Translations under genes and position numbers: made by a program
Shown here: positions 1-64,000 of the stretch, one piece after another
How the letters are laid out: every line of letters begins with the position of its first letter
How positions within the stretch are numbered: the first letter of the stretch is position 1
Assembly: GCA_965262725.1 (NCBI GenBank)
Contig: OZ253555.1
Coordinates: forward strand, 3,424,001-3,488,000
Reading direction: 5' to 3'
DNA length: 64,000 bases
Source of the DNA: Dehalococcoidia bacterium
GTDB taxonomy: Bacteria; Chloroflexota; Dehalococcoidia; UBA2979
Notes under the pieces: model-generated
The model's input: the letters and a program-made list of their open reading frames with translations, nothing else
Told to the model about the DNA's origin: nothing
Database searches by the model: none

Positions 1-201
1 CCGCATGTCCGCGAAGCCGACACGCATCTCACGCCGGCCAGGACCATCCTCTCCGGCGGCGTCGACCTCGGAACACCGCCGCGATCACGACTCTAGCACG
101 GCGCTCCGGCCGCTCACGATCTCCTTCGCCTCGCGCACCCGACGCCCCGATCCGCTGCCCGGGTGGGGGCGCCCCTTGCGCGTTACGGACATGGGGTGTC
201 T
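1..201 (+). mobile_element. Right (3') non-coding end of an IS110 element, sibling of the element at 51355-56582; the rest lies upstream of the window
   Basis: 1-201 aligns without gaps to 56382-56582 with 6 substitutions and ends in the same GGACATGGGGTGT-CT terminus. Confidence 0.9.
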
Positions 202-46450: not shown

Positions 46451-48607
46451 GTGGTCGTCTCCGAGCACACCCCTGCCGGCACTGATCATCTCTTCGAGTC
46501 TCTGGAGGGCTATCTCCCGCCGGCGCGCGTCGACGAGGTGCGCGCCGCCCTGGCCTTCGCCATCGAGGCCCACGCGGGACAGACCCGGCGGTCCGGTGAC
46601 GCGTACATCACCCACCCCGTCGCCGTCGCCCGCCTCGTGGCCGACCTGCGGATGGACGCGCAATCGGTGAAGGCCGCCCTGCTGCACGACGTCATCGAGG
46701 ACTGCCAGGTGACCGCGAAGCAACTGCGCGAGCACTTCGGGCCCGATGTCGCGACGCTGGTCGAAGGCGCGACCAAGATCGAGCACATTCCGCAGCCGGG
46801 AGGCCGCCCCCTCGCCGCCACGGACGCGGAGACGCTTCGGAAGATGCTCCTCGCGATGGCGGAGGACGTCCGAGTCGTCATCATCAAGATCGCCGACCGC
46901 CTCCACAACATGCAGACGCTCGAGCACCTCACTGCGGACCGCCGCGAGGCGATCGCGCGGGAGACGATGGACATCTACGCCCCGCTCGCCGGGCGCCTCG
47001 GGATCTGGCAGATGCGCTGGCAACTCGAGGACCTCGCGTTTCGCTTCCTCGATCCGGAAGGCTACCGCAGCGTCGCGGCGATGGTCGCCTCGCGCCGACA
47101 GGAGCGCGAGCGCTTCGTGCGCGGCGTCGCGACCGAGCTGGGCCAAGCGCTCGAGGCGACTGGGATCGCCGCAGATGTCTCGGGGCGAGTCAAGCACCTG
47201 CGCTCGATTCACGACAAGGTGCGCCGGTACCAGGCGGAGGGGAAGAGCTTCGACCAGATCCACGATCTCATCGCCGTGCGGGTGCTCGTACCGGAGGTGG
47301 CGGATTGCTACGCCGCGCTCGGCATCATCCACCAGATCTGGCGCCCCATTCCCGGCACGTTCGACGACTACATCGCGAACCCGAAGGAGTCGCTCTACCA
47401 GTCGCTGCACACCTCAGTGATGGGACCGGAGACGCATCCCTTCGAGGTGCAGATCCGCACCCACGAGATGCACGACGTGGCCGAGTACGGCGTAGCCGCC
47501 CACTGGCGCTACAAGGAGGAGCCGCGCAGCCGCCGGGACGCGCGCGACGAGGAGCGGATGGCCTGGTTGCGCCATCTGCTCGAGTGGCAGCGCGAGTCGT
47601 CGGGAGCTGAGGATTTCCTGGAGTCGGTGAAGACCGACGTCTTTCGCGACCAGGTCTTCGTCTATACCCCGCGCGGGGACGTCCGCGTCCTCCCGGCCGG
47701 GAGCACGCCGATCGACTTCGCGTTCCGCATCCACACCGATCTCGGGCTGCACTGCATCGGCGCGACGTTGAACGGCCACGTCGTGCCGCTCAACACCAGG
47801 CTCTCCAACGGCGATGTCGTCCACATCGTGCGCGGGCGGGCCGAGCGCGGCCCGTCACGTGAGTGGCTCAACCCGGCGCTCGGCTACATCGGCTCGTCGA
47901 ACGCGCGCCAGAAGGTGCGACAGTGGTTCCGTCGGCAGCAGCGCCACGAGAACGTGCAGCGCGGAAGCGAGCAGCTCGAACTCGAGCAGCGGCGCCTCGG
48001 CCTGCGGAGCGTCCCTGCGGACCTCGTTGCGCAGCTGGGGTTCGAGACCGCGGACGAGATGCTGGAGGCCATCGGCTACGGCGGAGTGTCCACCGAGCTA
48101 CTGGCGCAGAGGCTGGTCGAGCACGTGGCGCCATCTCGACCCGCTCTGCAGGGCCGCGACGACGCGACGGCCGTTCGCGTCTACGGCACCCTCGGGCACA
48201 AGGCGACGCTCGCCGGCTGCTGCCGGCCAGCCCCGCCCGATCCGATCGTCGGTTTCGTCACGCGCTCAGGCGGCGTGACCGTGCACCGCCACGACTGCCG
48301 CTCGGCAGCGCGTCGGGAGGAGCCGGAGCGCTACGTCGAATGCGACTGGGAGCCCTCGGCCATCCGCTACTCCGGGACCATCGAGGTGCACGCGTGGGAC
48401 CGCGTGGGCCTCCTCCGCGATATCAGCACCATGGCCGCCGCGGCCGGCGTCAACATGGTCGAGGTGCGCACGGAGGAGCAGCCGGACCGCACGACGATCG
48501 TCCACCTCCGGCTCGAGACCAAGGGTGGTGCCGAGTTCGCTCAGCTACTGCAGCACCTGGACGGCGTGCGCGGCGTAGTCTCCGTCCGCCGCGCGGACGC
48601 CTCCTGA
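46451..48607 (+). CDS. rel: Bifunctional (p)ppGpp synthetase/hydrolase (long RSH)
   Basis: HD motif LLHDVIED, ADRLHNM, YQSLHT, EVQIRT, TGS and ACT domains. Confidence 0.95.
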   Translation: MVVSEHTPAGTDHLFESLEGYLPPARVDEVRAALAFAIEAHAGQTRRSGDAYITHPVAVARLVADLRMDAQSVKAALLHDVIEDCQVTAKQLREHFGPDVATLVEGATKIEHIPQPGGRPLAATDAETLRKMLLAMAEDVRVVIIKIADRLHNMQTLEHLTADRREAIARETMDIYAPLAGRLGIWQMRWQLEDLAFRFLDPEGYRSVAAMVASRRQERERFVRGVATELGQALEATGIAADVSGRVKHLRSIHDKVRRYQAEGKSFDQIHDLIAVRVLVPEVADCYAALGIIHQIWRPIPGTFDDYIANPKESLYQSLHTSVMGPETHPFEVQIRTHEMHDVAEYGVAAHWRYKEEPRSRRDARDEERMAWLRHLLEWQRESSGAEDFLESVKTDVFRDQVFVYTPRGDVRVLPAGSTPIDFAFRIHTDLGLHCIGATLNGHVVPLNTRLSNGDVVHIVRGRAERGPSREWLNPALGYIGSSNARQKVRQWFRRQQRHENVQRGSEQLELEQRRLGLRSVPADLVAQLGFETADEMLEAIGYGGVSTELLAQRLVEHVAPSRPALQGRDDATAVRVYGTLGHKATLAGCCRPAPPDPIVGFVTRSGGVTVHRHDCRSAARREEPERYVECDWEPSAIRYSGTIEVHAWDRVGLLRDISTMAAAAGVNMVEVRTEEQPDRTTIVHLRLETKGGAEFAQLLQHLDGVRGVVSVRRADAS

Positions 48608-48665
48608 CAGGGACCCGCACCCACAACGGGACGGGCGAGGAGGCGCACCCGGTCGGGCGAGGCGC

Positions 48666-48680
48666 GGGGGGGGGGGGGGG
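48666..48680 (+). repeat. G15 homopolymer
   Basis: Direct reading. Confidence 0.85.
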
Positions 48681-48706
48681 TAGCGGGCGGCGGCCAGCTC
48701 CGCGCC

Positions 48707-48736
48707 TTGCGAGCGCTTCGAGCCGCTTCGTACACT
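48707..48736 (+). promoter_or_regulatory. Sigma70-type promoter of tRNA-Arg
   Basis: TTGCGA-N18-TACACT. Confidence 0.65.
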
Positions 48737-48746
48737 CCGTAGGCAC

Positions 48747-48821
48747 GCCCTCGTAGCTCAGCGGATAGAGCACCGGCCTCCGGAGCCGGGAGCGCAGGTT
48801 CGAGTCCTGCCGAGGGTACCA
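48747..48821 (+). tRNA. tRNA-Arg(CCG)
   Basis: GCCCTCG acceptor, CCGGC-CT-CCG-GA-GCCGG anticodon arm, ACCA end. Confidence 0.97.
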
Positions 48822-48864
48822 TCCCCCCATTCAGCGGTTCCGCCCGCTGGCGTACCCTCGATCC

Positions 48865-49200
48865 ATGAGCGACTCATCGGGAGCCGTCCCGGCCGCGACC
48901 GTCGTGACGGTCTACCCCATGACCGGCCGGCAACTCTTCTTCACCATCCCTCACGCTTTTTGCGAGGAGTGCGACCTCACCGTCCGCCTCGTCCAGCGCG
49001 TTGCCTCCGACCTCCCCGAGGTCGAAGTGCGCATCAGGCCCTGGTTCAACCACCTCTTCGACGCCCTGCGTCGCGGCGGCTGGCACCCGCCCGTCGTGAC
49101 GATCAACGGGACGATCGCCACCCAGGGTGTCGTCCCCGACGAAGACGGGCTCCGCCGCGCCCTCGTGCGCGCCGGCCGTAGCGCCCGCCGTCGCCGGTGA
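48865..49200 (+). CDS. Small thioredoxin/glutaredoxin-like protein
   Basis: CEEC, then PPVVTING...QGVVP. Confidence 0.65.
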   Translation: MSDSSGAVPAATVVTVYPMTGRQLFFTIPHAFCEECDLTVRLVQRVASDLPEVEVRIRPWFNHLFDALRRGGWHPPVVTINGTIATQGVVPDEDGLRRALVRAGRSARRRR

Positions 49201-50132
49201 CGCCTGACCACCCCGGTCCGGCCGTAACCGCCGCCGCGGAGGCTCCACGCACCCTCCTCGGTGGCTATCTCGCCGTCGGCTCCACCCGCGAATGGCTGAG
49301 GGTCTGGGCAGCCATCCTCATCCTCCTCGGCCCCGCGAGGCTCGTCCTTCGCCTCGCCGCCGTGCTGCCGGAGCGGGGCCCGGCACGCACCCGCGGCCGT
49401 GCGGCCTGCCGGGCCGCCGAGCGCTGGTGGGCTCGGCTCGCCGCCCGCCTCCTCGGTCTGCGCATCCACATCAGCGGTCTCGAACACATCGACCCGCAGG
49501 AGCGCTACGTGGTCGCCTCCCTCCACGAGGGCTTCGCCGACGGCCTCGCCCTGCTCCATCTCCCCCTCTCGCTCACGGCCGTCGCCCGCGACGAGCTCGC
49601 CACCTTCCCGTTCCTCGGCAACCAGCTCGTGCGCGGGCGGCACATCCTGATCCGCCCCGAGCGCCCGGTCCATGCCGCCCGTACCGTCCAGCGCGAGGCC
49701 CACGCTGCCATCGAGTCCGGCGACAGCGTCCTGTTCTTCCCCCAGGGCTCCATCCTCGGCATCGAGATCGCCTTCCAGCCTGGAGCCTTCAACCTCGCGC
49801 GCCGCCTCGGCCGCCCGCTCCTCCCCATAGTCGTCACGGGCGGCCATCGGGTCTGGGAGCACCCCTTCACGCCCACCCTGCGCGCCAACCAGTCCATGAG
49901 CGTCGCCGTGCTCCCGCCCGCCCCACCCGACGAAACCGTCTCCCGGCAAGCAACGATCGAGCGGTGCATGAAAGAGCGTGCCCTCGCGAGCGCCACGCCA
50001 CCTCGCCGCTTCGACCCGAGCCGCGACGGCTACTGGGACGCCTACCGCTATGAGATCGACCCCGCCTTCCCCGACCTCGCCCAAGACATCGCCAGCCACC
50101 GCCGCGGTGCGGTGCGAGCCCACCCCCGCTAG
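49197..50132 (+). CDS. Lysophospholipid acyltransferase (PlsC-like)
   Basis: HEGFAD (HX4D), FFPQG; GTGA overlap with the upstream gene. Confidence 0.8.
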   Translation: MTPDHPGPAVTAAAEAPRTLLGGYLAVGSTREWLRVWAAILILLGPARLVLRLAAVLPERGPARTRGRAACRAAERWWARLAARLLGLRIHISGLEHIDPQERYVVASLHEGFADGLALLHLPLSLTAVARDELATFPFLGNQLVRGRHILIRPERPVHAARTVQREAHAAIESGDSVLFFPQGSILGIEIAFQPGAFNLARRLGRPLLPIVVTGGHRVWEHPFTPTLRANQSMSVAVLPPAPPDETVSRQATIERCMKERALASATPPRRFDPSRDGYWDAYRYEIDPAFPDLAQDIASHRRGAVRAHPR

Positions 50133-50273
50133 CCCTGGTCCCGCCATCGAAGCGAGCACGCCGGGCGCGACCCCAACCAGACCGACGGCCTGGCGGCTAC
50201 AGCGTCACGGGCGCTCGAACGTTCGTAGGACAGTCGGGTCGGGCGTCGCAGGCCGGATAACGACCGCCGGCGC

Positions 50274-51155
50274 TCAGTCGAACTCCAGCGGCAGCGACGG
50301 ATCGGCGGCGTACTCCGACATCGAGGCGTCATAGACCGCGACGTCCTCGTAGCCCAGGAGCGAGAGGACGAAGGCGTCGTTGGACGCGGCGATGCCGCCC
50401 CCGCAGTACGTGACCACGCGCTGCGTGTGGTGCGCCCCCGCCTCTTCGAAGAGCGGCGCCAGCTCCTCCGCCGGGCGGTAGAGGCCGGTCTGGGGGTCGG
50501 TCAGCTCCATCGCCGGCACGTTGGTCGCGCGGGGGATGTGTCCGGCACGCCCGTAGGCTCGGCCGCCGTCGGCGCCCGAGTGCTGCTCCCGCCCGAGGGC
50601 GTTGATGAGGCAACTCCCGCCCCCGCCGCCCGACTCGACGAACGCGCGGACCTCGGCCAGGTCGGCGAAGCGGGCCGGGTCGGCGGTCGGCGTGAAGGTC
50701 GTGGGCGCGTACGCCGCCTCCCCCGTCGAGACGGGCCGGCCCTCGGCCGTCCAGCGACGCCAGCCGCCGTCGAGGACGGCCGCGCCCTCGCAGCCCATCG
50801 AGCGGAACATCCACCACAGCCTCGCCGCCCACGCCGAGCCCGAGCGGTCGTAGAGGACCAAGGTCGACGACTCCGAGATGCCGTGCCGTCCGGCCGCCGC
50901 TGCGAACGCCCCGGCCGAGGGCATCATGAAGCGCAGGCGGTGGTCGTTGTCTGAGAAGTCGGCCTGCAGGTCGAGGAAGGCCGCCCCGGGGATGTGTCCC
51001 GACTCATACTCCGCCCGTCCCGACTCGACGCGGTAGCCACCACCCTCCTGGGGACGCAGGAAGACGGTCGTCTCGAAGACGCACACGTCGTCGTCCTCCA
51101 CGTGCTCCGCCAGCCACTCGGTCGACACGAGGAACTCTGGATGCGCGAATGCCAT
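50274..51155 (-). CDS. Two-domain sulfurtransferase (rhodanese)
   Basis: GHIPGA, AARLWW, YCGGG, YDASMSEY. Confidence 0.92.
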   Translation of the reverse strand: MAFAHPEFLVSTEWLAEHVEDDDVCVFETTVFLRPQEGGGYRVESGRAEYESGHIPGAAFLDLQADFSDNDHRLRFMMPSAGAFAAAAGRHGISESSTLVLYDRSGSAWAARLWWMFRSMGCEGAAVLDGGWRRWTAEGRPVSTGEAAYAPTTFTPTADPARFADLAEVRAFVESGGGGGSCLINALGREQHSGADGGRAYGRAGHIPRATNVPAMELTDPQTGLYRPAEELAPLFEEAGAHHTQRVVTYCGGGIAASNDAFVLSLLGYEDVAVYDASMSEYAADPSLPLEFD

Positions 51156-51258
51156 GGTCAACTCCAGCCGGCGCGGGCCTGCGGTGAGAAGGCCGGTTCG
51201 CGGTCTAGTATCCCCATCCCGCGGACCGTCCGCGATCGCTTTCGGCCGGAGCGGGAGT

Positions 51259-51356
51259 CTACTCGCTCGCCGCCGCCTCGCGCAGCCGCCCGAGATCGAT
51301 GCTCTGCATCGTCAGCAGCACCTCCATGACGCGATCGGGCGCGATCGCCAGCAGCT
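51259..51356 (-). pseudogene. 3' half of the VOC-family gene split by IS110
   Basis: LLAIAPDRVMEVLLTMQSIDLGRLREAAASE* continues in frame from ...WQVVSAVPGE at 56581. Confidence 0.8.
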
Positions 51357-51364
51357 AATGGGAG

Positions 51365-51580
51365 CCGAACCAGAGGACCAGAGCGATCTGGGAGGATGGT
51401 TCCGGACCCGCCAGCCGGAGAGCATTACCAGTAGCTGAGGCGCTTGCGACCTCCAAGGGGAGACCGTGCCCCGGCTGGTTCGTTCGGGCCTGCGATGCAC
51501 TGATGGGGTGTCGTGCCGGTAGAGCACCGTGCCATTAGCTCGTTGCGGAGCAGCCCGGCGGGGCCAGCCAGCCAGGTGGG
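51365..51580 (+). ncRNA. Bridge RNA of element A (target- and donor-binding loops); ends approximate
   Basis: Stem 51411-51418/51471-51478 encloses CCAGTAGCT and GGGGAG; second loop contains ATGGGGTGTC and CCATTAG. Confidence 0.85.
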
Positions 51581-51598
51581 ACAGGAAGGGAGCACGGG

Positions 51599-52387
51599 TT
51601 GACGGTGTACGTGGGGGACGACTGGTCCGAGGACCATCACGACGTCCACGTCATGAACGAGGAGGGCGAGAGCCTCGAGGCGAAGCGACTCCCCGAGGGA
51701 GCGGAGGGCATGACCGCCCTCCACGCCCTGCTCGCCGAACACGCACAGGACGCCGGCCAGGTCGTGGTCGGCATCGAGACCGACCGCGGCCCGTGGGTCG
51801 CAGCGCTCATCGGCGCGGGCTACCGGGTCTACGCCATCAACCCGCGGGTGGCGTCCCTCTACCGCGAGCGCCACCAGGTCGGCGGCGGGAAGTCGGACCG
51901 GGGCGATGCGCGCATGCTCGCCAACCTCGTCCGCACCGACAGCCACAACCACCGGCCGGTCGCGGGCGACAGCGCCCTCGCCTCCGCCGTGCAGGTGCGT
52001 GCCCGCGCCCAGCAGCAGCTGGTCTGGAATCGCACCCGCGAGAGCAACCGACTGCGCAGCGCGCTGCTGCAGTACTTCCCGGCCACACTCCAGGCCTTCC
52101 CCGACCTCACGCATCCCGATGCGCTCTCGGTGCTAGCCGTCGCCCCGGACCCGCTCGCAGCGGCGAAGCTGACGCGGGCGCAGATCCGTGCGGCGCTCAG
52201 GCGCGGGGGCCGCAAGCGCAACCTGGACACGCGGACGGAGGAGATCCACGAGAAGCTCCGCCTCCGCACGCTCCACGTCGCGCCCGTCCTCACCGAGGCG
52301 TTCGCCGACAGCGTGCTCGTCCAGGTTGCCCAGCTCCAGGAGATCAACCGGCAGCTCGAGGGACTGGAGTCGAAGCTGGCCCCGTCT
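51599..52387 (+). pseudogene. IS110 recombinase A, N-terminal part (DEDD RuvC-like domain)
   Basis: YVGDDW, GIETD, KSDRGDA; interrupted at ...KLAPS. Confidence 0.92.
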
Positions 52388-52396
52388 ACCGACTAA

Positions 52397-53836
52397 CTAC
52401 ACCGTCGCCAAACCTGTGATCGGCGGTCCGGGAGCTCCGGTTCCATCCGCTTCGTGGCCTCCGAGCGGCACCAGCTGGTAGCCGAGCTTCCTGGCCCTGC
52501 GTCTCGCGTTGCGGAGGGCTCTCTCGTGGTGCTGCGCCTCGTAGTACTCGGCTCCGGCGTCCGTGTACCCGTGTCCGTACTTCAGGCTCGAGTAGATGAT
52601 CCTCGCCAGCTTGTGAGCCGTCGCAGTGATGGCCTTGGCTGGCCCCAGCTGCGCCTTCTTCCTCCGCAGGAACGCCCCCAGGGCGCTGTCGGAGCGGTGA
52701 AGACCGAAGGCGGCAAGACGCAGGGCCGCTGCTGCCCGGTTCGCCGACGGCGTGGTCCGGGAGCTGATGACCTTGCCTCCGGTGACGCGGTTGTTCGGGC
52801 TCAGGCCCAACCACGATGCGAAGTGCTTCGGGGTTTCCCAGCGGCTCATGTCCACTCCGACCTCGCTGACGACCTTCAGCGCCGTATGGGCGTCCACGCC
52901 ATCGATGCGCGTCAGGTCCACCCCCGTCATCCGGTAGAGATGGCTCCGCACGTCGAACGCCGGCGCATTCTTGGCGCGCTTCGACCGCTTGGGCTTCCCG
53001 AGAGGCGGCCGGGGGTCGCCGGAATCGTCCCACTCCTCCAGTAGCGCCTCGAGCTTCCCGTCGCACTCGGCGATCTTGCCCTGGTACACCCGGTAGAGAT
53101 CCCGGGCCTGCGCCAGTTCGAAGAGGTGCTCCTCCCGCCAGTGCCCCTCCAGTGACCGGGCGATCATCGACGTGTCCGCCCGGATCCTCGGGTCACGCAG
53201 CTGCGCCAGCTTCACGGGGTCACGCTCGCCACCAATGACGGCATCAATGATGGCCAGTCCCGTCGCGCCGGTGATGTCGCTGATGACGTGCTGGAGCTTG
53301 ACGTTCATCTGGGTCAGGGCCTTCTGCATGTGCTGAACGTGTCTGGCCGCGTCCTCGACCAGCAGGGCTCGCTGCCGCATGTAGCTGCGCAGTCGGCGGA
53401 TATCCTCATCGGGACGGAAGGCTCCGGAGAGCAGCCCGTAGGTGTGAAGCTGCTGGATCCACTGGCTGTCCAGCACATCCGTCTTGCGGCCGGGCGCATT
53501 CTTGATGCCCCTCGGGTTCACCAACAGCACCTCGAATCCCCGCTCCTCCAGCACTCCGAAGAGCGGGATCCAGTACACCCCCGTCGACTCCAGCGCCACG
53601 GTCTCGATGCCGCACTCGGCCAACCAGTCCGCCAGGCGGTACAGGTCGCCCGTGAAAGCTGCGAACTCCCGCACCGGCGTATCGGAACGGTCCTCGGGGA
53701 CTGCCACGAAGTGGCTCTCGGCGCCCACATCGATCCCGGCCGCGTTCAGGTTCACCCGGGACAGCGCCGCGGGCAGTACCGGCGGATCGCCCCGCGTTCC
53801 GTCGGCGCGCCGGGCACTCTCGCCTCGTGTCTCCAT
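52397..53836 (-). CDS. IS110 recombinase B (479 aa), copy 1
   Basis: AGIDVG, ALESTGVYW, RKTDVLDS, FASWLGLSP; ATG follows a purine-rich RBS. Confidence 0.93.
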   Translation of the reverse strand: METRGESARRADGTRGDPPVLPAALSRVNLNAAGIDVGAESHFVAVPEDRSDTPVREFAAFTGDLYRLADWLAECGIETVALESTGVYWIPLFGVLEERGFEVLLVNPRGIKNAPGRKTDVLDSQWIQQLHTYGLLSGAFRPDEDIRRLRSYMRQRALLVEDAARHVQHMQKALTQMNVKLQHVISDITGATGLAIIDAVIGGERDPVKLAQLRDPRIRADTSMIARSLEGHWREEHLFELAQARDLYRVYQGKIAECDGKLEALLEEWDDSGDPRPPLGKPKRSKRAKNAPAFDVRSHLYRMTGVDLTRIDGVDAHTALKVVSEVGVDMSRWETPKHFASWLGLSPNNRVTGGKVISSRTTPSANRAAAALRLAAFGLHRSDSALGAFLRRKKAQLGPAKAITATAHKLARIIYSSLKYGHGYTDAGAEYYEAQHHERALRNARRRARKLGYQLVPLGGHEADGTGAPGPPITGLATV

Positions 53837-53852
53837 CCTCTCGCCCCCTCCC

Positions 53853-54022
53853 CCACAGCGTGGGCGTGTGACCGGAGGGAGCCACGACCAGACCGACACT
53901 CTACCGAACGGGATCGCCCCGACGGGACGTCACCAGTGATGCAGTCGCAGGGCTCCCGGACCATGCTTTTGAACGGGCAGATCGCACCAACGATGTACCG
54001 GCCTCGGCCCGGTCATCACGCC
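53853..54022 (-). ncRNA. Bridge-RNA-like structured region of element B, copy 1
   Basis: Same sequence as 55568-55737. Confidence 0.7.
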
Positions 54023-54111
54023 TCGCCGCGACTATACATCGCCGCTCGGCCCACCCCAGTTAGTGGCTTGCTGCACCGCCCGGCCGCCGGGGGTGGGGTG
54101 CTACCGACTAA

Positions 54112-55551
54112 CTACACCGTCGCCAAACCTGTGATCGGCGGTCCGGGAGCTCCGGTTCCATCCGCTTCGTGGCCTCCGAGCGGCACCAGCTGGTAGCCGA
54201 GCTTCCTGGCCCTGCGTCTCGCGTTGCGGAGGGCTCTCTCGTGGTGCTGCGCCTCGTAGTACTCGGCTCCGGCGTCCGTGTACCCGTGTCCGTACTTCAG
54301 GCTCGAGTAGATGATCCTCGCCAGCTTGTGAGCCGTCGCAGTGATGGCCTTGGCTGGCCCCAGCTGCGCCTTCTTCCTCCGCAGGAACGCCCCCAGGGCG
54401 CTGTCGGAGCGGTGAAGACCGAAGGCGGCAAGACGCAGGGCCGCTGCTGCCCGGTTCGCCGACGGCGTGGTCCGGGAGCTGATGACCTTGCCTCCGGTGA
54501 CGCGGTTGTTCGGGCTCAGGCCCAACCACGATGCGAAGTGCTTCGGGGTTTCCCAGCGGCTCATGTCCACTCCGACCTCGCTGACGACCTTCAGCGCCGT
54601 ATGGGCGTCCACGCCATCGATGCGCGTCAGGTCCACCCCCGTCATCCGGTAGAGATGGCTCCGCACGTCGAACGCCGGCGCATTCTTGGCGCGCTTCGAC
54701 CGCTTGGGCTTCCCGAGAGGCGGCCGGGGGTCGCCGGAATCGTCCCACTCCTCCAGTAGCGCCTCGAGCTTCCCGTCGCACTCGGCGATCTTGCCCTGGT
54801 ACACCCGGTAGAGATCCCGGGCCTGCGCCAGTTCGAAGAGGTGCTCCTCCCGCCAGTGCCCCTCCAGTGACCGGGCGATCATCGACGTGTCCGCCCGGAT
54901 CCTCGGGTCACGCAGCTGCGCCAGCTTCACGGGGTCACGCTCGCCACCAATGACGGCATCAATGATGGCCAGTCCCGTCGCGCCGGTGATGTCGCTGATG
55001 ACGTGCTGGAGCTTGACGTTCATCTGGGTCAGGGCCTTCTGCATGTGCTGAACGTGTCTGGCCGCGTCCTCGACCAGCAGGGCTCGCTGCCGCATGTAGC
55101 TGCGCAGTCGGCGGATATCCTCATCGGGACGGAAGGCTCCGGAGAGCAGCCCGTAGGTGTGAAGCTGCTGGATCCACTGGCTGTCCAGCACATCCGTCTT
55201 GCGGCCGGGCGCATTCTTGATGCCCCTCGGGTTCACCAACAGCACCTCGAATCCCCGCTCCTCCAGCACTCCGAAGAGCGGGATCCAGTACACCCCCGTC
55301 GACTCCAGCGCCACGGTCTCGATGCCGCACTCGGCCAACCAGTCCGCCAGGCGGTACAGGTCGCCCGTGAAAGCTGCGAACTCCCGCACCGGCGTATCGG
55401 AACGGTCCTCGGGGACTGCCACGAAGTGGCTCTCGGCGCCCACATCGATCCCGGCCGCGTTCAGGTTCACCCGGGACAGCGCCGCGGGCAGTACCGGCGG
55501 ATCGCCCCGCGTTCCGTCGGCGCGCCGGGCACTCTCGCCTCGTGTCTCCAT
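54112..55551 (-). CDS. IS110 recombinase B (479 aa), copy 2
   Basis: Translation identical to copy 1. Confidence 0.92.
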   Translation of the reverse strand: METRGESARRADGTRGDPPVLPAALSRVNLNAAGIDVGAESHFVAVPEDRSDTPVREFAAFTGDLYRLADWLAECGIETVALESTGVYWIPLFGVLEERGFEVLLVNPRGIKNAPGRKTDVLDSQWIQQLHTYGLLSGAFRPDEDIRRLRSYMRQRALLVEDAARHVQHMQKALTQMNVKLQHVISDITGATGLAIIDAVIGGERDPVKLAQLRDPRIRADTSMIARSLEGHWREEHLFELAQARDLYRVYQGKIAECDGKLEALLEEWDDSGDPRPPLGKPKRSKRAKNAPAFDVRSHLYRMTGVDLTRIDGVDAHTALKVVSEVGVDMSRWETPKHFASWLGLSPNNRVTGGKVISSRTTPSANRAAAALRLAAFGLHRSDSALGAFLRRKKAQLGPAKAITATAHKLARIIYSSLKYGHGYTDAGAEYYEAQHHERALRNARRRARKLGYQLVPLGGHEADGTGAPGPPITGLATV

Positions 55552-55567
55552 CCTCTCGCCCCCTCCC

Positions 55568-55737
55568 CCACAGCGTGGGCGTGTGACCGGAGGGAGCCAC
55601 GACCAGACCGACACTCTACCGAACGGGATCGCCCCGACGGGACGTCACCAGTGATGCAGTCGCAGGGCTCCCGGACCATGCTTTTGAACGGGCAGATCGC
55701 ACCAACGATGTACCGGCCTCGGCCCGGTCATCACGCC
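55568..55737 (-). ncRNA. Bridge-RNA-like structured region of element B, copy 2; ends approximate
   Basis: Closing stem GGCGTG-A-TGACCGG/CCGGTCA-CACGCC, stem GGGAGCC/GGCTCCC, guides TCAAAAG and TCGGTAG; -10-like TATAGT at 55746-55751. Confidence 0.72.
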
Positions 55738-55817
55738 TCGCCGCGACTATACATCGCCGCTCGGCCCACCCCAGTTAGTGGCTTGCTGCACCGCCCGGCC
55801 GCCGGGGGTGGGGTGCT

Positions 55818-56255
55818 TTTGAGGAGCACCCGGACGCCGCGATTTACCTGTCGATGCCGGGCCTGGGGCCCGTGCTCGGCGCCCGGGTGCTGGGCGAGTT
55901 CGGGGATGACCCCGAACGCTACGAGTCCGCGAAGTCTCGCAGGAACTACGCGGGCACGTCGCCGCTCACCATAGCATCGGGGCGGAAGCGGACGGTCACC
56001 GCGCGCCACGTGCGGAACCGGCGCCTCTACGACGCGGTACACATGTGGGCGTTCTGCTCGCTCCAGGCGAGTCCCGGGTGCCGGGCGTACTACCAGCAGC
56101 GGCAAGCGCTGGGCGACGGGCACCACCAGGCGCTGCGCGCCCTCGCCAACCGCCTGGTCGCGTTCCTGCACGGCTGCCTGAGCACGCGTCGGCTCTACGA
56201 CGAGGAGGCGGCCTGGGGCAGCCTGAAGACTGAGCCTGCCGAGCTCGCCGCCTGA
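55818..56255 (+). pseudogene. IS110 recombinase A, C-terminal part (Tnp20 domain)
   Basis: FEEHPDAAIYLSMPGLG...YAGTSPLTIASG...ALRALANRL, in frame with 51599-52387. Confidence 0.92.
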
Positions 56256-56580
56256 CGGAGGTCGTTGAGCGCCTCGGCGGGCCCGGACTCATCCAGGGTC
56301 TGGAGCTCGTTGAGGGCGCAACACGGCGCGACGAGTCCCTGCACACCCCGATCACGGACGCCGGCAGCGGTCGGTGAGCCACCGCATGTCCGCGAAGCTG
56401 AGACGCAGCTCACGCCGGCCAGGACCATCCTCTCCGGCGGCGTCGACATCGGAACACCGCCGCGATCACGGCTCTAGCACGGCGCTCCGGCTGCTCACGA
56501 TCTCCTTCGCCTCGCGCACCCGACGCCCCGATCCGCTGCCCGGGTGGGGGCGCCCCTTGCGCGTTACGGACATGGGGTGT

Positions 56581-56909
56581 CTCCCCGGGCACCGCGGAGA
56601 CGACCTGCCAGGAAACGCCGAACTCCTCCTCGAGCCCGCCGCACTGGCCGGGGGCGCCGCCCTCAAAGAGCCGCTTCCGGAAGTGGTCGATCTCCTCGTG
56701 CGTCGTGCAGGTGACGACGAAGGAGATCGCCGGCGTGAACTCACCCATCGGACCACCGTCGGGGGCCTCGAAGCGATGTCCGTCAACCTCCAGCCCCGGC
56801 ACCGCGCCGACCCCGGCGGAGCACCACGGGATCTCCGAGCCGGAGAGGATGCTCGATCCGGGGAAGACGCCGGCGCAGAACTCGGCGGCAGCGGTCCGCG
56901 TCCGGGCAT
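56581..56909 (-). pseudogene. 5' half of a degenerate VOC-family gene
   Basis: DGGPMGEFTPAISFVVTC..EEIDHF..GQCGGLEEEFGVSWQVV; conserved Trp positions look mutated; start not recognisable. Confidence 0.75.
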
Positions 56910-57048
56910 CAGGGCGTCCGCCGCGGCGCCCGCACTCTCCGTCGCTGCCCCTCGACTCGATGGGTGCGGGCGCTCCGCTGCGGGCGGCCGCTATGGTGGC
57001 GACGCGGGCGGATGTCACATCCTGTCGGACGGCCGTCGGAGGCGGGCG

Positions 57049-60000
57049 ATGAGTACGGTGGGCGTCGAGGAGCGCACGCGGGAGTTGGGGCTCGCCCTGC
57101 TCGCGGAGGCGGCGCGCTACCGGCCGGGCCCGGCGGAGCGCATCCAGGACTGGCTGCTGGGCCTGACCGCCGCCAATGAGCGCTTCCGCGCCCGCCTGCT
57201 TCGTTACCTCGACGTACTCGCCTCGGTCGACCACGACACCAGCGGCCTGGAGGCGAAGCGGCTCGCGGCCGAGTACTTCGGCGACGACTTCCCTGAGCTG
57301 CCCCGCGGACTGCGCTGGCTGCTCCGGCTCGCCCGCGACAAACACGTGCCGGCGCGCCTCATGGGCGAGACGTCGCGTCGCGGGGCCGAGCTGTTCGCAC
57401 GGCGCTTCATCATGCCTCCCGGCGCGGAGACGGTGGCCGAGACGGTACGGCAGCTGCGCGATCACGGCCGCCTCCCCTCGTTCGATCTGCTCGGGGAGGC
57501 CGTGCTCAGCGAGCGCGAGGCCGAGGCCTACCTCGAGCGCTACCTCGCACTCGTCCGGCAGCTCGCCGATGACGCCGCGGCCGGCGAGATCACGGCGGGT
57601 GGCGTGTTCGCGCTCCAGGTCTCGCTCAAGATCTCCTCACTCACCGCGCACTTCAGCCCCGTCGACCCCGACGGCACGATCGCGCGCGTTCGTCCCCCGC
57701 TCGAGGCGATCGTCGAGGCGGCGGAGACTGCGGGCGTCGGCGTCACGGTCGACATGGAGCAGTTCGAGTACCGCGACCTCACGTGGGAGATGTTCACCCG
57801 CACGTTCGCGCGCGGCGAGCGCTTCGGCGGCTGGCCGGGCGCGGGGATCGTGTTGCAGGCCTACCTGCGCGAGGCCGACGCCCACGCGGATGCCCTCGTC
57901 GCGTTCGCCCGGGTGCGCGGCGTCCCGTTCCAGGTGCGGCTGGTCAAGGGCGCGTACTGGGACTACGAGAACATCGTCGCCCGCGCGGCAGGCTGGAGGC
58001 CGCCGGTCTTCACTCGCAAGGCCGCCACGGACGCGGCGTTCGAGCGCGTGCTCGCGCGACTGGTGAGAGCGCACCCGGCGCTCCACGTGGCGGTCGGAAG
58101 CCACAACGCGCGCGCCCACGCGCTGGCCGAGGCGCTCGCGGAGGCCTCGGGTCTCCCGCAGGGGGCGGTGGAACACCAGACGCTCTTCCGCACGGCTGAG
58201 GGCACGAGCCGCGCACTGGCGGGGCTCGGCTGGGCGGCCCGCGACTACGTGCCGTCGGGTGAGCTGCTGCCGGGCATGGCCTACCTGGTGCGGCGCGTGC
58301 TCGAGAACTCCTCGCAGGCCGGCATCCTCCTGCAGGGACGCACCGGCGCACCGCCCGAGGAGCTGCTACGCGCCCCGCCCGCGCTCGGGCCGGCTGCGCA
58401 GCCCCCGCCCGCGGCGTCGGGAGGACTCAAGCGGACGCCGGAGGCGCGCTGGTTCGACCCGGACTTCCGCGATGCGTTCGAGGCGGCGCTCGCCTCGACT
58501 CGCGCGCGCTGGGGAGAGCGCGTCGCGCTGCGCGCCGGCGGGGTTGCGCTGCCCGCCGCCGAGACGCGCGCGGTGCAGAGTCCCTCGCACCCCGAGGCAG
58601 AGCCGGTGGGCGTCGTCGAGTTCGCGGCCGCCGAGAGCGCCGGGCGCGCGATCGCCGTCGCCGCCTCGGGGCTCCGCGGCTGGGCGGCCAGGCCGGCGGC
58701 GGAACGGGCGTCGGTGCTGCGTCGGGCGGCCGATCTGCTCCGGGTGCGAGGCCACGAGTTTGCCGCGTGGATCGTGCACGAGGGCGGCCGCGACCGCGCC
58801 GGCGCGTGGACCGAGGTCGAGGAGGCGATCGATTTTCTGCACTACTACGCATCGCAGGCGGAGGCACTGTTCGGGGCGTTTGGTGACCGCATCGCGCCCC
58901 GGGGCGTGGTGGCCGTGATCCCGCCGTGGAACTTCCCCCTCGCGATCCCCAGCGGAATGACGGCGGCGGCTCTCGCCTGCGGGAACGCGGTCATCCTCAA
59001 GCCCGCCGAGCAGACGCCGCTGCTCGGCGGGCGCCTCGCCGCGCTGCTGCACGAGGCCGGCGTGCCCGACGACGCGCTGATCTCTCTACCCGGCCGCGGC
59101 GAGACGGTCGGTGCCGCGCTGGCGGAGAGCTCCGATGTCTCCATGGTGGCGTTCACGGGGTCGCGCGCCGTCGGCACGCTGCTCCACGAGATCGTCGCGC
59201 GCGTCGAGCCCGCCGGCGGGGCGGCGACGAAGACGCTCGTCGCGGAGATGGGGGGCAAGAACTCGGTGCTCGTCTTCCCGGACGCCGACCCCGACGAGGT
59301 CGTGGACGGCGTCATCCGCTCCGCCTTCGGGCACGCCAACCAGAAGTGCTCGGCGGCCTCGCTCATCCTCGTGGCGGAGCCCGCCTACGAGCCGATCCGC
59401 GACCGTCTGGTCGAGGCCGCGCGCAGCCTCCGCGCCGGGAGGGCCGACGCGCCCGGGACGCAGATCAATCCGGTCATCGATCGCGACGCCCGTGAGCGGC
59501 TCCTGCGCGACGCCGAGACCGCCCGCGCCGAAGGGGAGGTGCTCCTCGATCGCTTCGAGGAGCCTGCCGCGGTCGGCGGGCAGCTGGCGCTCGGTCCGCT
59601 CGTGATCGAGCTCCCGGCCTGGCGAGCGCGCGAAGCGCGCACGACGACCGAGGAGCTCTTCGGCCCGATCCTCGCGCTGATCCCGTTCGCGACCGAGGAG
59701 GAAGCCTACGCGGTCGCGAACGGGACGGACTACGGGCTCACCGCCGGCGTCTTCTCGCGCAGCCCCGCGACCATCGAGCGCGCCGCCCGGGCGCTCGAGG
59801 CCGGCAACATTTACGCCAACCGCGCCATCACGGCGGCGCGCGTCGGCGTCGAGCCGTTCGGTGGAATGAAGATGTCCGGCACCGGCCCGAAAGCCGGCGG
59901 AGCCGACTATCTCTGGGCGTTCGTGCACCGCACCGACGCGCCCGCAGGCGAGTGCGACGCTCCGCAAGAGGCTTCATCGTCCGGCGGGGAGACACGGCGG

Positions 60001-60684
60001 CCCGCCCTGCCGTCGGGCGGCTGGGACGAGGAGCTCGACGCGCGCATCGACGTCGTCGAGCGCGCCGCGGTGCTGCTCGCCGAAGACGGTCGCAGCGAGG
60101 ACGCCTCCGCGCTGCTGACGGCGGCGCAGGCCGCCCGCCGCGAGCTCGGACGCCCGCAGCCGACGATCCCGGTCGCCGGCCAGCGCACCGAGTTGCGATA
60201 CGACACCCCCCGCGGTATCGGCCTGCTCCACGCGGCGGGGCGAGATGCGGCGTGGTGGCTCGTCGCGCCGCTGCTCGCGGGGAACGCTCTCGCGCTCTTC
60301 TCCTCGCCGGCGCTCCCACCGGTCGTGGACGCGCTCCTCCGCGCGGGCATGGCCCCGGAGGCCGTGCGCCCCGGCGGGGGTGTCGACTCCATGCTCCGGG
60401 CGGCCCGCCGTCCCGAGGTCGCCTTCGCCGCGTCGGACGGCGGCGCCGGGTTCGCACGAGCGCTCAATAGAGAGCTGGGCGCGACCGCTCCCGGGCAGCG
60501 CTCGCTGAAGGCGCTGCTCTCCCGCCTCGACGGTCCCCAGGCGGGTGAGCCGGGCTTCGTGCAGCGCTTCGCGTGGCCGAGGGTCGTCGCGGTGCGCACG
60601 TTGCGCCACGGGGCCGACCTGGGGCTGGGGTCGGGTCGACACGCCGGGGGCGGCGCGGGCAGCCGGTGGGCGCCGGGCGGCTAG
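57049..60684 (+). CDS. putA: Bifunctional proline dehydrogenase / P5C dehydrogenase
   Basis: DLLGEA, VDME, VRLVKGAYWDYE, MAYLVRRVLEN, PWNFPLAI, EMGGKN, QKCSA. Confidence 0.93.
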   Translation: MSTVGVEERTRELGLALLAEAARYRPGPAERIQDWLLGLTAANERFRARLLRYLDVLASVDHDTSGLEAKRLAAEYFGDDFPELPRGLRWLLRLARDKHVPARLMGETSRRGAELFARRFIMPPGAETVAETVRQLRDHGRLPSFDLLGEAVLSEREAEAYLERYLALVRQLADDAAAGEITAGGVFALQVSLKISSLTAHFSPVDPDGTIARVRPPLEAIVEAAETAGVGVTVDMEQFEYRDLTWEMFTRTFARGERFGGWPGAGIVLQAYLREADAHADALVAFARVRGVPFQVRLVKGAYWDYENIVARAAGWRPPVFTRKAATDAAFERVLARLVRAHPALHVAVGSHNARAHALAEALAEASGLPQGAVEHQTLFRTAEGTSRALAGLGWAARDYVPSGELLPGMAYLVRRVLENSSQAGILLQGRTGAPPEELLRAPPALGPAAQPPPAASGGLKRTPEARWFDPDFRDAFEAALASTRARWGERVALRAGGVALPAAETRAVQSPSHPEAEPVGVVEFAAAESAGRAIAVAASGLRGWAARPAAERASVLRRAADLLRVRGHEFAAWIVHEGGRDRAGAWTEVEEAIDFLHYYASQAEALFGAFGDRIAPRGVVAVIPPWNFPLAIPSGMTAAALACGNAVILKPAEQTPLLGGRLAALLHEAGVPDDALISLPGRGETVGAALAESSDVSMVAFTGSRAVGTLLHEIVARVEPAGGAATKTLVAEMGGKNSVLVFPDADPDEVVDGVIRSAFGHANQKCSAASLILVAEPAYEPIRDRLVEAARSLRAGRADAPGTQINPVIDRDARERLLRDAETARAEGEVLLDRFEEPAAVGGQLALGPLVIELPAWRAREARTTTEELFGPILALIPFATEEEAYAVANGTDYGLTAGVFSRSPATIERAARALEAGNIYANRAITAARVGVEPFGGMKMSGTGPKAGGADYLWAFVHRTDAPAGECDAPQEASSSGGETRRPALPSGGWDEELDARIDVVERAAVLLAEDGRSEDASALLTAAQAARRELGRPQPTIPVAGQRTELRYDTPRGIGLLHAAGRDAAWWLVAPLLAGNALALFSSPALPPVVDALLRAGMAPEAVRPGGGVDSMLRAARRPEVAFAASDGGAGFARALNRELGATAPGQRSLKALLSRLDGPQAGEPGFVQRFAWPRVVAVRTLRHGADLGLGSGRHAGGGAGSRWAPGG

Positions 60685-61283
60685 CCCGTAGCGGTTCCCG
60701 CCATCCCGAGCACGCCGCGCAGCGCCTCGATGCTCCCGAGGTGGCGGTAGGCATGGATCGCGTGGAACTGCACGCAGTAGGCCACCGTGGTGACGCCCAC
60801 CTGCGTGCCGTAGTAGTGCTCGCACGCCTCGCCGAGCGCGGAGGCATCGAGCGCCCGAATCGCCTCGTCAGCCGCGCCGAAGGCGTCGCGCGCGTAGCCG
60901 AGCAGCGCCTCACGGCCCGGGAAGCACATCGAGAGGGTCGACTCGTCCTCCATCTGCGAGCCCGCCTCCCGGTGACCCAGCGCGGCCGGATCGAGGCCCC
61001 AGGCCGTGGCGATTTCTCGCGTGTGCCAGATCTGCGACCGCGCCCCCAGACGCTCGGCCAGGGTCGGCGTCGCCTGCGCGAGACTTGCCTGCGTCACGTC
61101 GGCCCAGCGCGCCATGTGCCAGAGGTGCCAGCCGATGCACGGCACCGTGCGCCCGCCCGACTGAAAGAGCCGGCGCTCGCTGAGCTCCGCGGTGATCTTC
61201 AGGAGCAAGACGTGGGCGGTCGTGACGCGATCCGTCAGCACGATGGCCGTCGCCTCGCCGCCGTCCTGAGCACCCGCCATCAT
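60681..61283 (-). CDS. DinB/DUF664-like protein
   Basis: IGWHLWHMARWAD...HAYRHLGSI. Confidence 0.75.
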   Translation of the reverse strand: MMAGAQDGGEATAIVLTDRVTTAHVLLLKITAELSERRLFQSGGRTVPCIGWHLWHMARWADVTQASLAQATPTLAERLGARSQIWHTREIATAWGLDPAALGHREAGSQMEDESTLSMCFPGREALLGYARDAFGAADEAIRALDASALGEACEHYYGTQVGVTTVAYCVQFHAIHAYRHLGSIEALRGVLGMAGTATG

Positions 61284-61505
61284 CCGCCTCCTGCTGCACC
61301 CCGCGCGTCCCCCCGGAGATGGTAGGACGCGCGCTGGCCTGATCGCACGCCCGCCCCGACGAGACGGGCGGCGGGGGCGCCGCGCGGGCCAGACGCTTCG
61401 CCTGACAGCGCGCCGCGTCCGGCCGTCGGGCGGCTGAGGGCGCGGCCTGAAACTGCTACCGTCGGGGTGGCCCACGGCGCCGGGCCGCTCCGAGGGGGGT
61501 TCGTG

Positions 61506-62336
61506 GTGAGCAGCAGCGTTCAGGTCGGCCGGGTCGAGATCGTCGCGCTGCTGGACGCGCCGCTCGGCGGCCCGCTCGGCGTGATCTTCCCCACCGTCGG
61601 CGAGCAGGAGTGGCAGCCGTACCGCGAGATCTATCCGCGATCCTGGGACGGCGCGCAGTTCAGCCATAACGCCCAGTGCTTCCTGCTCGTCACACCGACG
61701 GAGCGCGTGCTGGTCGACACCGGACTCGGACCGGGGCCGCACGCGATGCTCGGCGGCGCGACCGGGGCGCTGCTCGACGACCTCCGCGACGCCGGAACGG
61801 GGCCCGGCGAGATCGACCGGGTGGTCTTCACGCACCTGCACGGCGACCACATCGGCTGGACGGTGCGCGACGGAGCGGCCACCTTCCCCGCGGCCCGCCA
61901 CCTGGTGCCGCACGCCGACTGGGAGCACTTTCGCGCTCCGGACGGCGGGGAGACGGACCCGGCCGTCGCGGCGCAGATCGAACCTCTCGAGGAGATGGGC
62001 CTTCTCGACCTCGTGGAGGGCGAACACTCCGTGACGCCGGAACTCACGCTGGTGCCGACGCCCGGCCACACGCCCGGCCACCAGAGCCTCCTCGTCACCT
62101 CGGGCGGCGAGCGGGCGCTGATCCTCGGCGACGTCGCCAATCACCCGGCCCAGGTGGAGGAGGTGGAGTGGTCACCGATCTTCGACGGCGACGCGGAGGC
62201 GGCAGCGCACACCAGGCGCGGCGTCATGGAGCGCCTCGAGCAGGGCGGCGATCTCGTCGCCGCCGGACACTTCCCGCACCCGGGATTCGGCCACATCGTG
62301 AGGCTGGAGGGTCGGCGCATCTTCCGGGCGCTCTGA
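61506..62336 (+). CDS. MBL-fold metallo-hydrolase
   Basis: THLHGDH, TPGHTPGH; related to 39915-40778. Confidence 0.9.
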   Translation: MSSSVQVGRVEIVALLDAPLGGPLGVIFPTVGEQEWQPYREIYPRSWDGAQFSHNAQCFLLVTPTERVLVDTGLGPGPHAMLGGATGALLDDLRDAGTGPGEIDRVVFTHLHGDHIGWTVRDGAATFPAARHLVPHADWEHFRAPDGGETDPAVAAQIEPLEEMGLLDLVEGEHSVTPELTLVPTPGHTPGHQSLLVTSGGERALILGDVANHPAQVEEVEWSPIFDGDAEAAAHTRRGVMERLEQGGDLVAAGHFPHPGFGHIVRLEGRRIFRAL

Positions 62337-62395
62337 TCGCGCCCGGCGCTCCGAGCCTCCCGGGCACGGCCGCGCGGCGCGGGTAGACTGCGCCG

Positions 62396-63748: not shown

Positions 63749-63778
63749 ACGCCAGGCCTCCCCGGCCGGCCGGCGCCC

Positions 63779-64000
63779 TCAGAGGTCGGGGTCAGTGAGG
63801 AAGGCACGGACCTCCCGCGCCCACACGTCCGGCGCCTGCTGCGCGTAGAAGTTCCCCTCGCTCGGCAGGCGCACGCCGCGGGCGTTCGTGAGGGTCGCGA
63901 CGAACTTCTCGTGCGAGCGCCCGAGCTGGCTGCCCGTCCCGTGGATCACCAGCGTCAGGGCCTGGATGCGCGGGACCGTCTCCCAGATGTCGTGGTGCGT
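63779..64000 (-). CDS. Alpha/beta hydrolase C-terminus (partial), third paralogue
   Basis: WETVPRIQALTLVIHG...GRSHEKF...RGVRLP...AFLTDPDL* resembles the end of 28604-29425. Confidence 0.75.
   Translation of the reverse strand, partial: THHDIWETVPRIQALTLVIHGTGSQLGRSHEKFVATLTNARGVRLPSEGNFYAQQAPDVWAREVRAFLTDPDL

Follow-up and report, generated by a model that had tools for sequence, protein, structure and literature searches.

The window analysed here, a 64,000-nt stretch of the genome of a Dehalococcoidia bacterium (Chloroflexota, lineage UBA2979; contig OZ253555.1, positions 3,424,001 to 3,488,000 of the forward strand), sits in a single contig of 3.67 Mb and carries an insertion sequence of the IS110 family, which we call element A. 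The copy in the window, A1, opens with a non-coding left end of 242 nt, continues with a recombinase gene that is broken into two parts, and closes with a non-coding right end. The two parts of the gene are separated by a tandem pair of another IS110-family element, B. The layout of the left end, its comparison with other copies of A in the same genome, and its comparison with relatives in other genomes all indicate that 51357-51598 is very probably the gene of a bridge RNA, the loops of which specify both the site of insertion and the element's own ends. Coordinates of all features are collected in Table 1.

Ends, insertion site and recombinase of element A

A1 interrupts a minus-strand gene of the PF06983 family. 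Its left junction reads GCCAGCAG-CT-AATGGG (51347-51362) and its right junction ATGGGGTGT-CT-CCCCGG (56572-56588). Joined with one CT, the flanks are colinear across the junction with uninterrupted orthologues in three related genomes (G405, G412 and G420), and the minus-strand reading frame stays open; the insertion of A1 was therefore scarless at the CT. The empty site proposed in the preliminary description of this locus, GCCAGCAG-CT-CCCCGG, is thereby borne out. When the window was searched for ATGGGGTGTCT with at most one mismatch, three matches were found against 0.48 expected, a number reached in 1 of 100 shuffles; these are the A1 right end, that of another copy of the element (191-201) and a stretch inside the left end, at 51503-13, that coincides with a donor guide.

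The two coding parts of A1 match the Pfam families DEDD_Tnp_IS110 (51599-52387) and Transposase_20 (55818-56255), and when joined they form an open frame of 408 codons. The preliminary description had suggested that the gene could be rebuilt by removing its insert. The join is indeed open throughout, but such rebuilding is unneeded, since intact versions of the gene exist in two other copies of the element, A2 and A3. The insert does interrupt the gene, and it can now be named more exactly as a tandem pair of element B. Against the NCBIfam model NF033542 ("IS110 family RNA-guided transposase", cut-off 140) the A2 protein scores 197.2 bits and the B protein 255. The best solved relative of the A protein is the IS621 transposase (8wt6, E = 5.5e-9), and D8, D100, D103 and the SG motif of A align with D11, D102, D105 and S241-G242 of IS621, residues whose catalytic roles are taken from the IS621 work (PMC11208158); E60 is assigned from the local motif VGIET/ICIEA alone.

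The left end carries the parts of a bridge RNA in their expected order. All strings named in the preliminary description are present at the positions it gave, and its assignment of a left and a right target guide (LTG and RTG) and a left and a right donor guide (LDG and RDG) agrees with the layout published for IS621 (PMC11208160). The outer stem of the target-binding loop contains CCAGCCGG (51411-18) and CCGGCTGG (51471-78), and its inner hairpin GAGG (51437-40) and CCTC (51450-53). Three of the guides match the target or the element's ends at every position (Table 1), and the fourth, the LTG, could form a U·G wobble with the bottom strand at its ninth position, making 9/9 counting wobble.

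Table 1. Features of elements A and B in the window (positions within the 64,000-nt stretch)
Feature	Position	Strand	Remarks
Element A (copy A1)	51357-56582	+	IS110-family insertion sequence
Left CT core copy	51355-51356	+	Left target GCCAGCAG (51347-51354) just before
Left end (LE), very probable bridge RNA gene	51357-51598	+	5' stem-loop, target-binding loop, donor-binding loop
5' stem-loop of bridge RNA	51369-73/51396-51400	+	
Target-binding loop module	51410-51479	+	Outer stem 51410-25/51466-79; inner hairpin 51437-42/51447-53
LTG	51428-51436	+	CCAGTAGCT; same sense as left target plus core CCAGCAGCT, 8/9 identical
RTG	51457-51462	+	GGGGAG, reverse complement of core plus right target CTCCCC, 6/6
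Target-loop handshake guide	51463-64	+	AC after RTG; complementary to the GT that ends the right end
Donor-binding loop module	51491-51550	+	Outer stem ~51491-51500/51542-51550; inner hairpin GTGC 51513-16/GCAC 51524-27
LDG	51503-51512	+	ATGGGGTGTC; same as last 9 right-end bases plus first core base, 10/10
RDG	51532-51538	+	CCATTAG, reverse complement of CT plus left-end AATGG, 7/7
Donor-loop handshake base	51539	+	C, 3' of RDG; complementary to G51354 (target position -1)
N-terminal part of A recombinase gene	51599-52387	+	DEDD/RuvC-like domain, PF01548; interrupted after 52387
Element B copy 1	52388-54102	-	1715 bp including one CT; listed open reading frame 53899-52397; likely ATG 53836, 479 aa
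Element B copy 2	54103-55817	-	Head-to-tail with copy 1, 100% identical
B putative long donor guide	53901-53908 (copy 2: 55616-55623)	-	TTCGGTAG; against B's own end GTCGGT-AG 7/8
B putative long target guide	53966-53973 (copy 2: 55681-55688)	-	TTCAAAAG; against CTCAAA-AG in the A gene 7/8, eighth a possible U·G
C-terminal part of A recombinase gene	55818-56255	+	Transposase_20, PF02371; stop codon 56253-55
Right end (RE) of element A	56256-56580	+	Ends in ATGGGGTGT; -35-like hexamer TTGCGC at 56557-62
Right CT core copy	56581-56582	+	Right target CCCCGG (56583-88) directly after
Right end of remnant A5r	1-201	+	Ends ATGGGGTGT-CT (match at 191-201); different flank, TCCTCGCC, after

Target guides follow the flanks among copies and relatives

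A BLAST search of the genome with parts of the element retrieved four full copies of A, namely A1 (with two B units), A2 and A3 (both uninterrupted) and A4 (with one B), as well as the remnant A5r (5'-truncated, one B), the right end of which opens the window, and two fragments. The four full copies are 92-94% identical to each other, and A copies overall are 92-96% identical to A1. All full copies start CT/AATGGG and finish ATGGGGTGT/CT, and their flanks differ from copy to copy. A2 and A3 each encode an intact 408-aa recombinase and a bridge RNA of their own.

When the left ends of A1-A4 are aligned, 30 of the 242 positions vary. Eight of these fall among the 15 positions of the LTG and RTG as first delimited in the preliminary description, against 22 among the 227 positions elsewhere (Fisher, 7.8e-5); under a wider guide definition, chosen after seeing the data, the figures are 11/17 and 19/225. 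The donor guides, by contrast with the target guides, are invariant among the four copies (0 positions vary). The differing guides of A1, A2 and A4 each fit that copy's own flanks.

We then extended the comparison to a family set, for which one genome per species was searched. This gave 80 loci with proteins 58-93% identical, in Dehalococcoidia/Chloroflexota metagenome-assembled genomes (MAGs), Actinomycetota and mycobacteria. Both ends were usable at 62 of the loci, which together with the four copies of our genome make 66 elements and 61 distinct element/site combinations. Both boundaries were placed without recourse to the target guides, on the left by the conserved CT/AATGGG and on the right by the conserved donor motif that lies beyond the gene. 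Across the 61 combinations, the LTG matched its own left flank at a mean of 4.59 of the 7 non-core positions, compared with 2.24 when guides and flanks were mispaired, and the RTG matched its own right flank at 4.36 of 5, compared with 2.21. None of 5000 permutations reached the observed match on either side. The preliminary description had named, as the outcome contrary to its reading, homologous elements at other targets that keep the same loops without matching their flanks; the opposite is seen, with loops that differ and match their own flanks.

Changes on the donor side point the same way. The sole element with the left end CTCATGG (L082) has the RDG CCATGAG, a compensatory change. At right-end position -4, the 15 distinct guide/DNA pairs comprise seven G/G, six A/A, two G/A and no A/G, which is the pattern expected for a guide that pairs with the bottom strand with G·T tolerated.

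The stems covary and a handshake base tracks the target

The structure of the RNA was examined in 59 aligned sequences, over 36 base pairs in six helices. RNAalifold finds both stems of the target loop, outer and inner, and of the donor loop the inner hairpin; to these we added the 5' stem and the outer stem of the donor loop, taken from a constrained fold. A further RNAalifold "pairing", between the RDG and the start of the left end, is the plain complementarity of the RDG to the donor. In the six helices 97.3% of alignment cells are paired; sliding the partners by one to three columns lowers this to 24.5-45.7%. Double-sided changes occur in 20 of the 36 pairs; 0 of 500 shuffles reach the observed measures. 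In helices 2 and 3, those of the target loop, 13 of the 20 pairs have changed on both sides, with 94.6-98.8% of cells paired. The donor loop (helices 4-6) is the most conserved part of the alignment, and the invariant columns cluster there. The RNA thus has a 5' hairpin, then a variable loop, then a conserved loop, the same layout as is described for 103 IS621 orthologues (PMC11208160).

In IS621, once strands have been exchanged, a base beside the RDG is paired with position 7 of the target (PMC11208158). In the A family, the base that follows the RDG on its 3' side complements target position -1; this holds for 48 of 51 distinct combinations, in the forms C:G (38), G:C (9) and A:T (1), the remaining three being T:G. 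The bases 3' of the RTG are AC, or AU in relatives, and stand opposite the GT at the terminus of the right end. This handshake feature is absent from the preliminary description.

A promoter predicted at the circle junction

It has been proposed for IS621 that excision rebuilds a promoter (PMC11208160). Among the 52 distinct right ends compared here (51 homologous loci and A1), 43 have TTGAC[A/G/C] (TTGACA in 32) at a distance of 18 nt upstream of the hexamer T-CT-AAT, and in most of the other nine, A1 included, a TTG-hexamer stands one base later, leaving a spacer of 17 nt. The T-CT-AAT hexamer arises solely when right end, core and left end are joined. This arrangement of -35 and -10 elements fits the published idea, and we regard it as a predicted promoter.

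Modelled on IS621, the cycle of element A would then run as follows. Excision would join the ends of the element and so place the -35 box of the right end upstream of the -10-like T-CT-AAT, giving an RNA of ~180-230 nt. This RNA would fold into a 5' hairpin followed by two stem-loops, each with an internal loop; the first loop (LTG and RTG) would pair with both strands of the target around the CT core, and the second (LDG and RDG) with the joined ends of the element. Once strands have been exchanged, the handshake bases beside the RTG and RDG would pair with the partner DNA, and the DEDD/serine recombinase would swap strands at the CT so that the circle is inserted without a scar. The sequence layout, the covariation of stems, the covariation of guides with flanks and the scarless insertion are observed; production of the RNA, its binding by the recombinase and retargeting through changed loops are presumed from the analogy with IS621.

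In three metatranscriptome runs from one sponge sample, four small contigs were found in one run and none in the other two; absence of cover was given no weight. One contig of 208 nt matches 51461-51518 in its middle, and its unmatched ends resemble the guides of a relative like that at locus L007. This contig is a weak hint that such RNAs occur in nature and says nothing for A1.

Weighing the alternatives

Several observations weigh against reading the left end of A1 as a bridge RNA gene. Folded alone, its 242 nt give a z of -0.87, with 45 of 200 shuffles at least as good, and the minimum-energy structure of the single A1 sequence is not the bridge RNA fold. A scan of 48000-64000 with Rfam 15 returned no match over 51357-51598 up to E = 1. 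The recombinase gene is split by 3430 bp of element B, and the -35 box of A1 is degenerate (TTGCGC). The -10-like TCTAAT is without the usual A at position 2, and a consensus scan of the integrated element found no promoter-like site, although that scan requires the A at position 2 of the -10 box and cannot score the junction hexamer. The guides of A3 fit its own flanks poorly (LTG 4/7, RTG 2/5), for which insertion by means of another copy's RNA, insertion at a half-matching site or later drift are possible explanations, and several homologues score low, in part through 1-nt register slips of the column-based extraction, which were left in. Finally, the contigs from the RNA libraries show neither strand nor ends and do not prove transcription, and their signal comes from a related element and not from A1.

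Since the fold of the single sequence is unremarkable, the question of chance had to be settled by comparison among relatives. Both approaches had been proposed in the preliminary description, and they came out differently: folding alone lends no support, whereas the comparative covariation, both of the stems and of guides with flanks, does.

Of the alternatives, the one that survives best grants that the RNA gene is real but takes A1 itself for a dead and immobile relic, in which the match between guides and flanks records a past insertion. We consider this quite possible, if short of probable. It would account for the interrupted gene, for a -35 box that reads TTGCGC where 32 of the 52 distinct right ends have TTGACA, and for the genomic sites that match the A1 guide pattern and are still unoccupied (see below). 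Yet the A1 frame is otherwise intact over its 408 codons, its donor guides and both its ends are unchanged, two paralogues with ~93% DNA identity encode intact recombinases, and the bridge RNA of IS621 can act in trans (PMC11208160). A1 cannot make its own recombinase because two tandem B copies split the gene, but the intact paralogues A2 and A3 could supply one in trans.

That the left end is a mere leader or promoter with a recombinase-binding end, its flank matches being due to chance or insertion microhomology and no guide RNA being involved, is in our view very improbable: the unremarkable single-sequence fold, the lack of an Rfam match, the absence of direct RNA evidence, and the commonness of 6-9 nt matches in GC-rich DNA (as in the unoccupied sites that match A1's pattern) would all suit it, but it is largely refuted by the element-specific match of guides and flanks in the permutations, by the stem covariation and by a handshake position that lies far from the LTG and nevertheless follows target position -1, and it sits badly with the concentration of paralogue variation in the guides, which moreover lie 70-180 nt inside the element and therefore cannot be copies made at insertion.

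Further observations on element A and its surroundings

Twenty unoccupied sites in the genome (G000) match the 11-nt pattern of the A1 guides, AG[TC]A[GA]-CT-CCCC; a search of the same genome for unoccupied sites with the guide patterns of A2, A3 or A4 found none. A3 (G000:C1 678317-680116) and a truncated fragment, A6r (2505005-2505487), have at least 40 nt of right flank in common with one difference, which suggests a duplicated segment. Over 51359-51490, the DNA run X2 contains two versions of the left end, one identical to A1 and the other with 11 differences, of which nine are listed, lying mostly in or beside guide positions (A2/A4 type); these versions are consistent with the assembled paralogues.

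In A1 and its nearest relatives (L005 and L006) the right end measures ~325 nt, and in most other homologues the donor motif stands ~30-60 nt past the end of the protein match. Elsewhere in the genome, the extra ~270 nt of the A1 right end occur as copies in A fragments alone. The sole Rfam match within element A, to Ms_AS-4 (RF02464, "Actinobacteria sRNA"), lies at 55853-55934 on the minus strand, where it runs antisense to the conserved Transposase_20 region (55.8 bits for a gathering score of 50); it is probably due to coding-sequence conservation and not to an RNA gene of its own.

Around the element the chromosomal context is ordinary, with a rhodanese-domain protein at 50277-51161 (minus strand) and a PutA-type proline dehydrogenase/aldehyde dehydrogenase at 57060-60681 (plus strand). 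Farther upstream, 2.5 kb from element A, lies a tRNA gene (48747-48818, plus strand, 68.6 bits), for which we saw no link to the element.

Element B repeatedly entered one site in A

Each of the two B units encodes, on the minus strand, a protein with both IS110 domains, and the inner junction of the dimer (54102/54103) is the B circle junction. The genome contains four copies of B that are 99.8-100% identical, all of them at one site of A, which reads GCGT-CT-TTTGAGG on the plus strand and CTCAAA-AG-ACG in the orientation of B. Since the A copies that host them differ by 4-8% whereas the B copies are near-identical, B must have entered A independently at least three times. The uninterrupted A2 and A3 read CTCAAG-AG, with a mismatch beside the core, and no unoccupied full B target is left in the genome.

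For the guides of B we assembled 75 usable homologous loci, 71 of them with both segments; nearly all are on metagenome contigs, and the proteins are 53-63% identical. As regex extraction of the guides proved too noisy, alignment columns were used. For the donor segment, a match of at least 7/8 lies right after the stop codon in 65 of the 71, against a mean of 7.6 with another element's segment; for the target segment, one lies upstream of the segment itself, mostly at ~110-135 nt, in 54 of the 71, the corresponding mean being 5.2. The element's first two bases recur directly behind the putative long target guide in 0.94 and 0.81 of these 54. On the 5' side of the loop, a putative second target guide gives a signal that is weaker yet real (2.08/5 against 1.30), reached by 0 of 5000 permutations. 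A column-by-column concordance scan of the homologues for the second (right-hand) donor guide gave no clear diagonal, and the guide was not found. As a guide to the right target, GACGTCCCGTCGGGG was considered and rejected; the stretch is a variable structural hairpin in homologues. Searching 400 genomes of the phylum with B gave a match in six besides G000 (loci L086, L087 and L093 being 44-46% identical). At three loci of the B family on metagenome contigs (L118, L152 and L102) the target and donor guides are the same, and upstream of the left end stands the right end of the element itself; either the copies are in tandem or the contigs were assembled from circles.

As far as its layout can be read, the B RNA would have the loop order of IS621 only if the CT is read on the strand opposite the B genes. 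Thus read, a short same-sense guide stands on the 5' side of the loop and a long complementary guide, with handshake bases, on the 3' side. The polarity between B's recombination site and its genes would then be flipped, a feature that is partly worked out. It is conceivable, and for now a tentative idea that we hold rather doubtful, that B is a dedicated parasite of A, with flipped core polarity and with its guide set to a 14-bp site in the A recombinase gene, A2 and A3 being possible escape alleles.

Relation to known systems

The bridge RNA mechanism was published in 2024 for IS621 of E. coli (Durrant et al. 2024, PMC11208160; Hiraizumi et al. 2024, PMC11208158). Thousands of bridge RNAs have already been predicted, including for 85.7% of the IS110-group elements in ISfinder (PMC11208160), and the clade of element A may already be among the predictions of Durrant et al. 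2024. As in IS621, a long left end that precedes a gene for a recombinase with DEDD and Tnp domains encodes the RNA of element A, in which a 5' hairpin is followed by a stem-loop with a variable internal loop and another with a conserved one. The CT core, the handshake bases 3' of the RTG and RDG and the scarless insertion are also shared, and a -35 box in the right end would, by its position, complete a promoter on circularisation. Element A differs from IS621 in its distantly related and longer protein (408 aa against 326 aa), in a GC-rich left end of 242 nt against the ~177 nt of the IS621 RNA, in an unusually long right end (325 nt), and in its hosts, which are Chloroflexota-type MAGs and Actinomycetota. 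In addition, A1 is non-autonomous, and A is known here from its sequence alone.

Tandem and expanded IS110 loci have already been described (bioRxiv 10.64898/2026.08.14.744561; CazIS110-1, bioRxiv 10.1101/2025.10.25.684509). Like them, B is present as a head-to-tail dimer of complete modules, so that the dimer is not new in itself; unlike them, it is lodged inside the recombinase gene of a different member of the IS110 family. IS1111-group elements are also said to target mobile elements, as IS4321/IS5075 reportedly do in the inverted repeats of the Tn21 family and the IS1111-attC group in attC sites. B resembles these in having its specific target in another mobile element, but where those are aimed at transposon ends or attC, B is aimed at the coding sequence of a related recombinase gene, and its RNA lies upstream of its gene, as in the IS110 group. 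Our limited literature search turned up no description of a nested IS110-in-IS110 insertion or of actinobacterial bridge RNAs.

These findings leave the known mechanism unchanged. The most novel thread in them is the repeated homing of B together with its apparently flipped core polarity, both of which are partly worked out. Element A itself offers a clean natural case in which the four guides, the handshake bases and the -35 box of the junction can all be read from the sequence, and in which paralogues within one genome have drifted to different targets through changes confined to the target loop. It also adds a GC-rich clade, found in Chloroflexota-type MAGs, Actinomycetota and mycobacteria, as a source of candidate programmable recombinases, for which A2 and A3 are ready-made. 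The nested B, as one RNA-guided element homing into another, provides a natural test of single-mismatch discrimination beside the core.

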